This document shows positions 9,745-59,722 of a stretch of 64,000 nucleotides of DNA, in pieces. Every line of letters starts with the position of its first letter. The first letter of the stretch is position 1. Source of the stretch: Escherichia phage UPEC01; sequence record MW233709; one strand, 5' to 3'. The notes beneath the pieces are model-generated. The model was given only the letters and a program-made list of their open reading frames with translations. It had not been told where the DNA came from and ran no database searches. The position numbers and the translations under genes were made by a program.

Positions 9745-9802
9745 GTTTACATCCTCATCAAAAGGGTGTACTATTATCCCATCAACTACTGAGGAGAATA
9801 CA
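9745..9802 (+). promoter_or_regulatory. early promoter cassette with CAACTACTGA leader
   Basis: GTTTACA 9745-9751, GGGTGTACTATTAT, leader ATCCCATCAACTACTGAGGAG. Confidence 0.5.
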
Positions 9803-13034: not shown

Positions 13035-13060
13035 AAGGACCCTTCGGGGTCCTTTTTTAT
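13035..13060 (+). terminator. rho-independent terminator
   Basis: AAGGACCC-TTCG-GGGTCCTT then T-run. Confidence 0.65.
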
Positions 13061-13071
13061 TTTAAAAAGTA

Positions 13072-49176: not shown

Positions 49177-49737
49177 ATGAACATCATCAAATCTGATACC
49201 GAACCCAACCAGTTAAAATTTAGTGAAATGGAGATAGCTTCATTATTTGAATGCCGTACATCAAAGGTTGATAAAACCTTGCATTCAAACATCAACTCAA
49301 TTATCAAGCCAAGGTTGTCTATACCCGATACAGTCTTGTGGCGCGGGGTAACCCAGCAAGAGATTGATTTGTTAGATGAAGCAAAAGAATCAATGCAACC
49401 TTTTGAATTTGGACGGATAACCTCCTTTACAGAAGACTATGGTATTGCCAGGGATTTTGCTGCAATGGAATATGCATCAAGGACTATCGTCAGATTGAAT
49501 CAGACAAAAGCTTTTTGTTACCATGATGCGATGCGCAAAATCGCGCTTGATGTTCCGCTGGAATTCTTCAATACAGTTTCTGGTTCCGAACAGGCAGCAA
49601 CGTTAAGACGTGAAGAATACATGGACATGATTGATTCTGAGCTTGAATGGTTTGTTCCAGTTGACCAGAAATTCGTGGTGGTTGATGCTGGATTTGTTGG
49701 TGATTATTATGTTCTTGACTGTGTACAAGAGCAATAA
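49177..49737 (+). CDS. ADP-ribosyltransferase (ModB-like by order)
   Basis: R-S-E-type ART motifs: LWRGV, SFT, ELEW. Confidence 0.65.
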   Translation: MNIIKSDTEPNQLKFSEMEIASLFECRTSKVDKTLHSNINSIIKPRLSIPDTVLWRGVTQQEIDLLDEAKESMQPFEFGRITSFTEDYGIARDFAAMEYASRTIVRLNQTKAFCYHDAMRKIALDVPLEFFNTVSGSEQAATLRREEYMDMIDSELEWFVPVDQKFVVVDAGFVGDYYVLDCVQEQ

Positions 49738-49781
49738 GACACGTTAAGATGCTCCTATCAACTACTGATGAGGATAATAAA
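49721..49781 (+). promoter_or_regulatory. early promoter cassette overlapping 3' end of upstream ART gene
   Basis: GTGTACAA 49721-49728, GTTAAGATG, CTCCTATCAACTACTGATGAGGA. Confidence 0.45.
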
Positions 49782-50396
49782 ATGCTGTACACTGATGACG
49801 TTTTGAATGGAATTATTGACACTGCCGCTTCTAGTGAGTCTTTTCGTGACCAATGTCAAGCAGAGATTGATGCTCTTTATACAGATAATGAGCAATCAGT
49901 ACTCTGGCAGTGTATGGAAAATAAACCTGACCTGATTCAAGAAGACTTAACCAGGATTATCCGCAACAATCTGAATACTACACCGCCGGCAGCGTTGTTC
50001 CGCGGTATATCAAAGAAAACCATGGAATACCTGGAAGATTTAAGATATGTTGGTGCGACAATTGAGTTCAACCGTGTGATGAGTTTTTCCAGAGACTGGC
50101 AGGTTGCAAGAAATTTCGCATCATATAGTTTCTATGGCACAAGGAATATTTTCTGCATAAACAATGCACCTTATGCGTATAACTATCAGGAAGCAATCTT
50201 TAAAATGATTTGCGGTGCTCCTCCTGAAGAGTTCAATGGTGCATATCCAGAAGCAACCAGGAAGTCAAACTTACACCTAGTTAATGATGAGGATGAGTTT
50301 ATGTTTCCCGCTGGGACTACGCTTCGCGTAGATTTGATTGAGAAACACCCATTGAATAACCTTTATACTGTTTGGCATTTGACTGTTTTGAACTAA
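49782..50396 (+). CDS. ADP-ribosyltransferase (ModA-like by order)
   Basis: LFRGI, SFSRD, DEDEF; ORF-track start lies inside promoter leader. Confidence 0.65.
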   Translation: MLYTDDVLNGIIDTAASSESFRDQCQAEIDALYTDNEQSVLWQCMENKPDLIQEDLTRIIRNNLNTTPPAALFRGISKKTMEYLEDLRYVGATIEFNRVMSFSRDWQVARNFASYSFYGTRNIFCINNAPYAYNYQEAIFKMICGAPPEEFNGAYPEATRKSNLHLVNDEDEFMFPAGTTLRVDLIEKHPLNNLYTVWHLTVLN

Positions 50397-52904: not shown

Positions 52905-53142
52905 AGTACATAAAGAAGATTTAGATAATCTTATCTACGGTATTCAGGACGCGGTTGAATTTTTCGAAGATAATTCGACTATCGTCGTGCAGGGTAATTA
53001 CGTTTTACTGGAACTGAATCTTATTCGGAAACGTATGGCCGCGATTGAATATTTTAACAATGAAGAGCCAGGGATTTTTATCTCTGATTATGTTGCTGGT
53101 GAAATTCAGAAATTAAAAGAGATGTGCGATGGTTGCTGGTGA
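52897..53142 (+). CDS. hypothetical protein (dda.1 position)
   Basis: ATG overlapping dda stop; C-terminus lies inside 40-bp tandem repeat. Confidence 0.5.
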   Translation: MYKVHKEDLDNLIYGIQDAVEFFEDNSTIVVQGNYVLLELNLIRKRMAAIEYFNNEEPGIFISDYVAGEIQKLKEMCDGCW

Positions 53143-53171
53143 AATTCAGAAATTAAAAGAGATGTGTGATG
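53092..53171. repeat. 2 x 40-bp tandem direct repeat at dda.1/dexA junction
   Basis: 53092-53131 and 53132-53171 differ at one position (C/T). Confidence 0.85.
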
Positions 53172-53852
53172 ATTGATGCTATTATTGACTTTGAAACTCT
53201 GGGAAACGGCTCGAAGGGAGCCGTTATTGACCTGGCGCTGATTACATTCGAATCTGACCCTGCTATTGTGGAATCGTTCGAAACCCTGGTTAATCGCGGC
53301 AAACGCATTAAGTTTAGTCTCGAATACCAAAAAGGAAAACGTCTGTTTGATACAACAACCATGGGTTGGTGGAAAAAGCAATCAGCAGAAGCTCGTGTTA
53401 ACCTGACTCCTTCTGCACATGATGTTGATACTCTGACCGGTATCCAACAGGCGATTGACTATCTGAATGGTAATGGAATTAACAAATACGAAAGCCTTAT
53501 GTGGTGCCGTGGGATGTCTTTTGACTTCCCGTTGTTTGTTGACCTTATCCGCGACCTACAGCGCAATGAGGGGATTCCTGAGCGTGAATTGAATACCTAT
53601 AACCTGGAGCCGGTTGTATTCTGGAACCAGCGAGATATCAGGACAGCCATCGAAGCCTTGTCACTCGTCCGTAAGATGTGTGAAACCCCATTACCGAAAG
53701 GGACTTTAGATGGATTTGTGGCGCACGATTCGGTACATGACTGCGCGAAAGATATTTTGATGTTGAAGTATGCCCAGCGCTATGCTCTTGGTTTAGATGA
53801 AGTTCCTTCCGAAGAAGATGCAGACCCATTATCTTTGCCGAAAAAACGATAA
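53169..53852 (+). CDS. dexA: exonuclease A (DexA)
   Basis: IIDFET, WCRGMSFDFP, AHDSxHDCAKD match recalled T4 DexA; start 53169 (ATG) or 53166 (GTG). Confidence 0.93.
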   Translation: MIDAIIDFETLGNGSKGAVIDLALITFESDPAIVESFETLVNRGKRIKFSLEYQKGKRLFDTTTMGWWKKQSAEARVNLTPSAHDVDTLTGIQQAIDYLNGNGINKYESLMWCRGMSFDFPLFVDLIRDLQRNEGIPERELNTYNLEPVVFWNQRDIRTAIEALSLVRKMCETPLPKGTLDGFVAHDSVHDCAKDILMLKYAQRYALGLDEVPSEEDADPLSLPKKR

Positions 53853-57058: not shown

Positions 57059-58891
57059 ATGATGATTAATAATGAAATTAAAGTACTCTCGGACGTCGAG
57101 CATATCAAAAAACGTTCCGGGATGTATATTGGTTCCAGTTCAAATGAAGCGCATGAGCGATTCTTGTTTGGTGAATATAAGTCTGTAAGCTATGTTCCTG
57201 GTATTGTAAAACTGATTGATGAAATTATCGATAACTCTGTTGATGAAGCAATTCGCACCAGTTTTAAATTTGCCAATAAAATTGATGTTCAAATTAAAGA
57301 TAATCAGATTTCGGTTTCTGATAATGGTCGTGGTATTCCTCAAGCAATGGTTACAGACCAAAACGGTGAACAAATCCCTGGCCCTGTTGCAGCATGGACT
57401 ATTCCAAAAGCCGGTGGCAACTTCGGTGATGATGCTGAACGTAAAACTGGCGGGATGAATGGTGTCGGGTCTTCTCTGACCAATATTTTCTCTGTATTGT
57501 TCACCGGGATTACCTCTGATGGAGCAAACGAAATTACTGTTAACTGCTCCAACGGTATGGAAAACAAAGGTTGGTCCACCAAGAAATCTAAGGGCAAAGG
57601 TACAACTGTTATATTTGTTCCAGATTTTAGTCACTTTGAAGAAAATAGTCTGTCCCAGATTTATCTGGATATTACATTGGACCGTTTACAGACTCTCGCG
57701 GTTGTTTATCCGGATATTCAGTTCACCTTTAATGGTAAAAAGGTTGATGGTAATTTCAAGAAGTTCTCCAAGCAATTCGGAACCGAAGTTGTTATCCAGG
57801 AAACTGATACAGTATCAATGGCTTTTACGACCAGCCCGGATGGTTTCCGTCAGTTGACTTATGTCAACAACATTCATACAAAGAATGGCGGACACCACGT
57901 TGAATGTGTTATGGATGATATCTGTGAACACCTTCAGCCTGCGATTAAGCGCAAATATAAAGGCATCGAGGTGACCAAGGCACGAGTTAAAGAATGCCTC
58001 ACCATGCTTATGTTCATCCGCGATATGAGCAACATGCGATTTGATTCCCAGACCAAGGAGCGATTGACTTCTCCGGCTGGTGAAATTCGAAATCACATTA
58101 AGATTGATGCTAAGAAAATCGCACAAGCTATTCTGAAAAATGAACCGCTGATTATGCCGATTGTTGAAGCTGCATTGGCTCGTAAATTGGCTGCAGAGAA
58201 AGCAGCAGAGACCAAGGCGAATAAGAAAGCTTCGAAGGCCAAGGTGCAGAAACACATCAAGGCAAACGAATGGGGCAATGATAAGCTGGAAACGACTCTA
58301 TTCCTGACCGAAGGGGATTCTGCAACTGGTCCATTTATCAAGGTTCGCGACCGTGAATTGCAAGGTGCTTATCCATTACGTGGTAAGTTTAAAAACACAT
58401 GGGGTCTGAAAGCTGTTGAAGTTATGAAGAACGCTGAAGCCTTTGATGTGTGTGCAATTACTGGGTTAACGATTGGACAACCGGCCGAGAATATGAATTA
58501 CCGAAACATTGCTATCATGACAGATGCGGATGTGGATGGTGTCGGTAGTATCTATCCATCGTTATTGGCGTTTTTCAGTAACTGGCCAGAGTTGTTCCAT
58601 GAAGGACGAATTCGCTTTGTGAAAACACCTGTTATTATTGCACAGCTCAAAGATAAACAAGAATGGTTCTATTCTCTTCCTGACTATGAAGAAGCTAAGG
58701 ATAAACTTCCGAAGCACACCATCCGATATATCAAGGGGCTTGGTTCTCTGGAAGATTCCGAGTACAAACGCGTATTGCTCGAACCGGTATTCGAAGTTGT
58801 TCAATTGCCCGACAACTGGAAAGAACTGTTCGAAATGCTATTCGGTAAAGATTCCCAGCAGCGTAAAGACTGGATGAATGCGACGCTATAA
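57059..58891 (+). CDS. 39: DNA topoisomerase II large subunit (fused 39+60 form)
   Basis: 610 aa continuous; GHKL ATPase motifs (EIIDNSVDE, GRGIP); no gene-60-type interruption. Confidence 0.95.
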   Translation: MMINNEIKVLSDVEHIKKRSGMYIGSSSNEAHERFLFGEYKSVSYVPGIVKLIDEIIDNSVDEAIRTSFKFANKIDVQIKDNQISVSDNGRGIPQAMVTDQNGEQIPGPVAAWTIPKAGGNFGDDAERKTGGMNGVGSSLTNIFSVLFTGITSDGANEITVNCSNGMENKGWSTKKSKGKGTTVIFVPDFSHFEENSLSQIYLDITLDRLQTLAVVYPDIQFTFNGKKVDGNFKKFSKQFGTEVVIQETDTVSMAFTTSPDGFRQLTYVNNIHTKNGGHHVECVMDDICEHLQPAIKRKYKGIEVTKARVKECLTMLMFIRDMSNMRFDSQTKERLTSPAGEIRNHIKIDAKKIAQAILKNEPLIMPIVEAALARKLAAEKAAETKANKKASKAKVQKHIKANEWGNDKLETTLFLTEGDSATGPFIKVRDRELQGAYPLRGKFKNTWGLKAVEVMKNAEAFDVCAITGLTIGQPAENMNYRNIAIMTDADVDGVGSIYPSLLAFFSNWPELFHEGRIRFVKTPVIIAQLKDKQEWFYSLPDYEEAKDKLPKHTIRYIKGLGSLEDSEYKRVLLEPVFEVVQLPDNWKELFEMLFGKDSQQRKDWMNATL

Positions 58892-58933: not shown

Positions 58934-59086
58934 ATGAAAAAGTGGTGGGTTACGTTGTCAAATGGCGAATACGGTTATCTGTGGGCCGATACTAAACCCC
59001 TGTTTGCATCCTTTGTCACCATTATGTGCGAGACCTGGGATGGTGAATACTATACCGCGTATGGGCAAGTCTATAAAGTTGAGTAG
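58934..59086 (+). CDS. hypothetical small protein (50 aa; not in ORF track)
   Basis: Read manually; followed by terminator. Confidence 0.4.
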   Translation: MKKWWVTLSNGEYGYLWADTKPLFASFVTIMCETWDGEYYTAYGQVYKVE

Positions 59087-59089
59087 CCA

Positions 59090-59114
59090 AAAGGACCTTC
59101 GGGTCCTTTTTTAT
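59090..59114 (+). terminator. rho-independent terminator
   Basis: AAGGACC-TTCG-GGTCCTT then TTTTTT. Confidence 0.65.
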
Positions 59115-59288
59115 TATGTACAAGCCATAAAAATTGCGTTAAGATGTCCTTGAGGTGAAAATATGATTATGTCTGACGGAAGTTTAGTTAATCTACATTT
59201 TTTATTATGTACAAGCCATAAAAATTGCGTTAAGATGTCCTTGAGGTGAAAATATGATTATGTCTGACGGAAGTTTAGTTAATCTACA
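59107..59288. repeat. 2 x 91-bp perfect tandem duplication (promoter-like element, RBS and first 12 codons)
   Basis: 59107-59197 identical to 59198-59288. Confidence 0.9.
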
Positions 59289-59538
59289 GAATGTTGCTCG
59301 TTGTATTATGGAAGCAGGCCTGAGGAAGGTGCAGGAGCTCCCAGATAGCGACAGGAAGCGAAGTTACTTGTTGGCTGTAAGAGCATCAGCCATGAGCATT
59401 AAGGCTGGCCAGAAGGTTCCTGAGGAGCGAATTGAAGCACTCCTTGCATTGATATACCATGGCCAAGAACATAAAGCTACCATGCGTAGTATGAGAAAAA
59501 TATTACAGGAGATTGGAAATGACGAACTTCAAAGTTAA
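59254..59538 (+). CDS. hypothetical protein (complete copy downstream of duplication)
   Basis: ATG in second repeat copy; first copy gives a 26-codon truncated frame. Confidence 0.5.
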   Translation: MIMSDGSLVNLQNVARCIMEAGLRKVQELPDSDRKRSYLLAVRASAMSIKAGQKVPEERIEALLALIYHGQEHKATMRSMRKILQEIGNDELQS

Positions 59539-59722
59539 TATGGAACTGTTTGATAAGGCTATCCATAAAGAGTACCGTGTTATCCAACGATTTTTTGATA
59601 TAAGAGAAGCTGAAGAGTTTAAAGAACGCTTCAAAGAAATCCGTATTAAAATAGCTTCAGACACCGCAACAAAGGATGAACTTCTTGAAGTTGCAGAATT
59701 AATCAAACGTAACATAAAGTGA
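59519..59722 (+). CDS. hypothetical protein (start uncertain)
   Basis: GGAG SD 7 nt before ATG 59519. Confidence 0.45.
   Translation: MTNFKVNMELFDKAIHKEYRVIQRFFDIREAEEFKERFKEIRIKIASDTATKDELLEVAELIKRNIK

Follow-up and report, generated by a model that had tools for sequence, protein, structure and literature searches.

A perfect 91-bp tandem repeat upstream of the rII genes in a Gaprivervirus genome record as a probable assembly or finishing artefact

The stretch of DNA considered here (the window, 64 kb of the record of Escherichia phage UPEC01, MW233709) comes from a T4-like coliphage of the genus Gaprivervirus (VR7 and SP18 group). The nearest genome in GenBank is that of phage TH41, which shares 96.9-98.9% identity with most of the window, and the best matches in the phage collection are 95-98.7% identical. 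At the locus in question, gene 39 is followed by a conserved 50-aa open reading frame (ORF), an intrinsic terminator, a tandem repeat of 91 bp, a gene for a 94-aa protein of the DUF7367 family, rIIA.1 and the lysis inhibitor gene rIIA, all on the plus strand (Table 1). In the relative EAWsc9 the DUF7367 protein (59254-59538 in the window; 577-861 of locus L005) bears the name "cell division protein ZapA". A Pfam search at E <= 0.1 returned DUF7367 alone and no ZapA match, and the designation has the look of an automatic annotation without support, or at best of a remote similarity. In the close relative vB_EcoM_RZ (MW598459.1) rIIA is annotated as three consecutive CDSs (locus L002, 3750-6760), where the window has one intact ORF of 744 aa; the three-way split is probably the result of frameshift errors in MW598459.1.

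Table 1. Features of the locus, the internal control repeat and the read-derived contigs aligned to the window
Feature	Position in window	Strand	Evidence or remark
Gene 39, DNA topoisomerase II large subunit, 610 aa (609 aa from second ATG)	57059-58891	+	ORF; annotation in relatives; Pfam HATPase_c, DNA_gyraseB and TOPRIM_C on identical product
Conserved 50-aa ORF, function unassigned, VR7 gp004 homologue	58934-59086	+	phrog_4369, E = 3.9e-29; annotated in relatives
Intrinsic terminator, stem AAAAGGACC / GGTCCTTTT, loop TTCG, T-rich tail	59089-59115	+	Terminator scan; fold
91-bp unit, copy 1, judged spurious	59107-59197	+	Found neither in any relative nor in the SRR16018663 assembly
Promoter-like core, copy 1: TGTACA (59117-59122), 17-nt spacer, TAAGAT (59140-59145)	59117-59145	+	Matches core of the early-promoter family of the window
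Ribosome-binding site GAGGTGA, copy 1	59152-59158	+	Sequence; invariant in relatives
28-aa ORF made by the duplication (MIMSDGSLVNLHFLLCTSHKNCVKMSLR)	59163-59249	+	11 native codons, then frame shift
91-bp unit, copy 2, continuous with DUF7367 gene	59198-59288	+	Tandem Repeats Finder and string comparison
Promoter-like core, copy 2: TGTACA-17-TAAGAT	59208-59236	+	Identical to core of copy 1
Ribosome-binding site GAGGTGA, copy 2	59243-59249	+	Contains TGA stop of the 28-aa ORF
DUF7367 gene, 94 aa, VR7 gp003 homologue	59254-59538	+	PF24075, E = 8e-37; phrog_5382
rIIA.1	59513-59722	+	PF24210 T4_RIIA1, E = 3.2e-31
rIIA, RIIA lysis inhibitor, 744 aa	59730-61964	+	phrog_612, E = 3e-230
Genuine 40-bp x 2.1 tandem repeat, 95% identity, internal control	53092-53175	+	Tandem Repeats Finder; Logan break as the graph predicts
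Logan contig _291	9763-13065		0 mismatches
Logan contig _163	24469-41346 (part retrieved)		0 mismatches
Logan contig _290	44039-53121		0 mismatches
Logan contig _171	53137-64000		0 mismatches, single 91-bp unit

The repeat was originally placed directly after the terminator of the gene 39 region. The terminator follows the 50-aa ORF, which lies between gene 39 and the repeat. It has the organisation of a Rho-independent terminator, with a G+C-rich hairpin succeeded by a run of T and with pairing that is conserved. The fold reaches -12.4 kcal/mol (z = -3.5), and none of 200 shuffled sequences was as good. A second stem variant, GGTCTCC/GGAGACC, is present in VR7, SP18, TH54 and VR25 with the pairing kept around the same TTCG loop, and two stems with compensatory changes among relatives support a real hairpin. 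The first 91-bp unit has its left edge within the T-run, at 59107, just past the G+C-rich core of the stem (GGTCC), so the hairpin is not duplicated. The only Rfam result at the locus was a chance match of the other strand to STnc130, whose 23.8 bits lie below the gathering score of 55.

Tandem Repeats Finder describes 59107-59288 as a repeat with a period of 91, 2.0 copies, 100% matches and a score of 364, and direct string comparison gave 91 identical letters out of 91 between two copies which abut without a spacer. The perfect tandem duplication announced in the original prediction is in this way confirmed, and within 64 kb chance cannot account for an exact match of 91 nt. It is the sole large perfect repeat of the window, the next largest being the 40-bp element in 2.1 copies with 95% identity at 53092-53175. 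The novel junction between 59197 and 59198 reads ...TTAGTTAATCTACA on its left side and TTTTTTATTATGTAC... on its right side (flanking letters ...AATCTACA and TTTTTTATT..., respectively). Copy 1 is preceded by C whereas the unit ends with A, and copy 2 is followed by G whereas the unit begins with T. The repeat can therefore be extended on neither side, which makes its phase exact and the junction microhomology 0 bp; direct homology at the end points, the mark of slipped-strand or illegitimate recombination, is missing from both sides. Which of the two copies is counted as the extra one is an arbitrary choice.

Each unit spans the T-tail of the terminator, a weak early-type promoter-like core, a ribosome-binding site and 11.7 codons from the start of the DUF7367 gene. 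As had been stated before, TGTACAAG, GTTAAGATG, a Shine-Dalgarno sequence (GAGGTGA) and the ATG are found in both copies. Instead of the first 12 codons, however, the unit holds 11 full codons and two nucleotides of the twelfth (CA of CAG), which is completed to His in copy 1 and to Gln in copy 2. Since 91 is not divisible by three, the ORF that opens in copy 1 shifts frame in copy 2. The expectation that the first copy yields only a short peptide and the second begins the 94-aa protein was correct (28-aa ORF at 59163-59249, 94-aa ORF at 59254-59538). No family matches of the 28-aa ORF were found in Pfam or PHROG.

A stereotyped family of early promoters occurs throughout the window. Its members consist of an A-rich tract with a G, the hexamer TGTACA or TTTACA, a 17-nt spacer, (T/C)ATAAT and a leader of one of two subtypes, CCCATCAACTACT or TTCCATACTGAGTT; their -35 hexamers start, for example, at 443, 5833, 13073, 13662, 23731, 41612, 42926, 53860 and 54938, and TGTACA is commoner among them than the T4-like GTTTAC. 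With these T4-type (sigma-70 dependent) promoters the core of the 91-bp unit shares its hexamers and its spacer, since TGTACA-17-TAAGAT fits the family pattern of (T/G)TTACA or TGTACA at -35, 17 nt and a (T/C)ATAAT-like -10 element, and it shares the location just 3' of a terminator and 5' of a gene. The hexamers are kept in 11 relatives (TAGGAT in one). In contrast to the family, the core has neither the upstream A-rich stretch with its final G ahead of the -35 hexamer nor the conserved CCCATCAACTACT-like leader, the sequences at these places being TTTTTTATTA upstream and GTCCTTGAGGTG downstream, and a transcript from the predicted start would possess only about 11 nt of leader. On a weight matrix of 59 positions, built from 14 intergenic family members of the window, the cores of copies 1 and 2 score -7.6 and -6.0 bits, at least 30 bits below the 24-58 bits of the training members themselves (-3 to 50 bits in leave-one-out scoring). 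The same TGTACAAG...GTTAAGATG is used at 49722, there with the family leader, upstream of a 215-aa ORF (49749-50396). Of the promoter-like element as originally described, the conserved hexamers matching the early-family core can be retained, while the upstream tract and the leader are missing and the score is low; judged from its sequence, it is plausibly a weak promoter.

Other promoter types were also considered for the unit. TGCGTTA resembles a MotA box, but no TAnnnT is found at the right distance for a middle promoter, and the late-promoter motif TATAAATA does not occur in the sequence, so that by the T4 consensus sequences both types were rejected. A generic sigma-70 scan offered TTAAGA-17-TATGAT as the promoter of the gene, and this candidate was rejected, its -10 hexamer overlapping the ATG.

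A comparison with relatives, recommended in the original prediction, revealed a single copy of the unit in every related record of the phage collection: a query of 851 nt aligned to about 760 nt, i.e. to one 91-bp copy, in 33 of 33 cases. The TH41 genome, 98.7% identical over 20 kb of the window, has one copy with 100% identity over the matched sequence. When 11 relatives were aligned, all 11 displayed a gap of exactly one 91-bp unit. The Logan contigs of SRR16018663 and ERR13731188, the two assemblies read across the site, have one copy each. A 29-mer spanning the junction gave no exact match in viral_contigs, genome_contigs or metagenome_contigs.

The deciding evidence comes from the run SRR16018663. 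Its Logan contigs (k=31), reached through exact-protein look-ups, include four that equal the window at 100.000% identity with no mismatch over about 40 kb in total (Table 1), and the sole difference between them and the window in these 40 kb is the extra 91-bp unit. As the nearest GenBank genome differs by 1-2%, the absence of mismatches over such a length indicates that SRR16018663 holds the genotype of the window. The record may have been built from the reads of this run, or the run may represent a sister stock, which could lack this one event. No paper was found in a literature search for SRR16018663.

The behaviour of the contigs at repeats was compared with a k=31 de Bruijn graph simulated from the window alone. 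The simulated unitig ends at 9763, 41346, 44039, 53121 and 53137 coincide to the base with five observed ends of the Logan contigs. For a genome with two copies of the 91-bp unit the simulation gives forced breaks at 59136, 59197, 59227 and 59258, none of which is seen in the Logan contigs. The 40-bp tandem repeat, which has the same graph topology, served as a control: there the Logan contigs end at 53121 and restart at 53137 as predicted, which means that repeats of this kind do not vanish unnoticed in the assembly. It follows from the lack of breaks at the 91-bp site that the junction k-mers are absent from SRR16018663 or too rare to survive filtering. The earlier proposal was to be given up if reads supported only one copy, and such support now exists by proxy, in the one-copy Logan contig, though not through direct inspection of reads. 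A further break, between contigs _291 and _163 at 13039-13065 (a terminator-plus-promoter junction), is not predicted by the window-only k=31 graph; presumably another copy of the terminator/promoter module, located beyond the window, shares a 31-mer with this site.

The control repeat is itself a natural duplication. It is situated at the boundary of a small Y00H_G-like ORF and the start of a gene for a 227-aa Rv2179c-like exonuclease (53169-53852), where it duplicates the gene-start region and affects how long the upstream ORF is (79-91 aa across assemblies) and how far it overlaps. Two copies are present in the window, TH41, SRR29999943 and SRR28497685, and one copy in ERR13731188, SRR27732218, SRR17982425, SRR27732229 and ERZ28613647. 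The 91-bp repeat resembles it as a two-copy tandem of the same genome which includes a gene start and a ribosome-binding region. Unlike the 91-bp repeat, the 40-bp repeat is diverged (95%), is common to several independent genomes and assemblies, is naturally polymorphic and branches the read-derived graph.

The original prediction had left two readings side by side, a recent event doubling the promoter and an assembly artefact, and the relatives, the junction search and the one-copy assembly favour the latter. No relative has the duplication, nor does the independent assembly derived from reads of the same genotype, and the second 91-bp copy is with high probability an artefact of assembly or finishing and not a part of the phage genome. 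The best route to it would be an untrimmed end overlap. A T4-like genome is circularly permuted and would assemble as a "circle", which a graph assembler may output as a linear contig with its first k bases repeated at the end; if such a contig were closed or re-oriented without trimming of the overlap, a perfect, directly abutting duplicate of k bases would be left at an arbitrary place and with no homology at the junction. The 100% identity, the 0 bp of microhomology and the odd length of the unit (91 is odd, as k must be) all fit a k-mer overlap, and the absence of the second copy from the relatives and from the one-copy assembly speaks for the same origin, a junction without read support being indicated by contig _171, with one copy and without the forced breaks. 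The creating step is accordingly taken to be an end overlap with k = 91, and the original contig would have ended at the site of the duplication. From a typical end-overlap artefact the present repeat differs in being internal instead of standing at the contig ends, so that a later step of closing or re-orientation is needed. It differs, too, in its length: 91 is not the default k of common assemblers, and the SPAdes defaults end at 55, 77 or 127. A statement on k-mer overlaps is contained in PMC5923482, and none was found in the Phage Annotation Guide (PMC8785237).

A real and very recent tandem duplication, fixed in the phage stock of the record and absent from the stock or sample of SRR16018663, is unlikely. 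Tandem duplications of the T4 rII region are classical, and the 40-bp repeat demonstrates that short duplications arise naturally at gene boundaries of these phages. The left edge of the unit at the foot of the terminator hairpin is a plausible point of stalling or template switch, and perfect identity fits a very young event. However, the microhomology normally used in slipped-strand duplication is missing at the junction, and the junction itself is absent from three contig collections, just as all 33 relatives have a single copy. In the read-derived assembly of the identical genotype one copy is found with no branching of the graph, so that by this proxy the junction does not appear among the phage reads of SRR16018663. 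A perfect repeat of 91 bp would moreover be a substrate for T4-type homologous recombination and hence unstable without selection, and with so weak a promoter-like core a selective benefit is not obvious. A duplication confined to a minority of molecules or to chimeric library fragments, promoted to the consensus by the assembler or a polisher and removed from the Logan contigs by abundance filters, is very improbable. Phage stocks are populations, and the one-copy Logan contig would be compatible with rare junction k-mers, provided that they were rare enough for filtering; nevertheless, consensus callers normally follow the majority, and the clean and exact 2.0-copy structure is explained by it no better than by an end overlap.

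The 91-bp duplication is thus most likely not a real feature, and the true locus most likely consists of gene 39, the 50-aa ORF, the terminator, a short conserved leader with the weak promoter-like core and the ribosome-binding site, DUF7367, rIIA.1 and rIIA, with one unit as in all relatives. The matter is then chiefly one of data quality: without correction, the 28-aa ORF in the record is spurious, its "tandem promoter" is false and its genome length is overstated by 91 bp. Perfect duplicates of k-mer size can mislead scans for repeats, promoters and genes. They can be vetted in a read-free manner, if a k-mer-graph assembly of the same genotype has been made independently: the sequence is compared with it, and its contig ends are matched to the breakpoints that the sequence predicts. 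Were the duplication real, two weak promoter-like cores would stand 91 bp apart and a 28-aa upstream ORF would terminate with TGA inside the ribosome-binding site of DUF7367, and the expression of DUF7367, rIIA.1 and rIIA could be changed through the tandem promoter or through translational coupling. That the weak early promoter has really been duplicated anew, together with the ribosome-binding site and the 11 initial codons, and that the duplication raises or re-times the expression of this cluster, is quite unlikely. If true, it would be a modest example of a regulatory micro-duplication upstream of the rII genes and a snapshot of regulatory evolution in a T4-like phage.

The start of the DUF7367 gene shows a further peculiarity, seen in an alignment of 12 genomes. 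From the ribosome-binding site to about codon 11 (59152-59285 in the window) the nucleotide sequence is nearly invariant in genomes which otherwise differ by up to about 10%. Variation there is confined to the third base of codon 11 and to a single base in the stretch that separates the ribosome-binding site from the ATG, and synonymous variation is frequent directly after codon 12. This pattern suggests that the translation-initiation region of DUF7367 may be under nucleotide-level constraint, for example as an RNA structure or a regulator-binding site.
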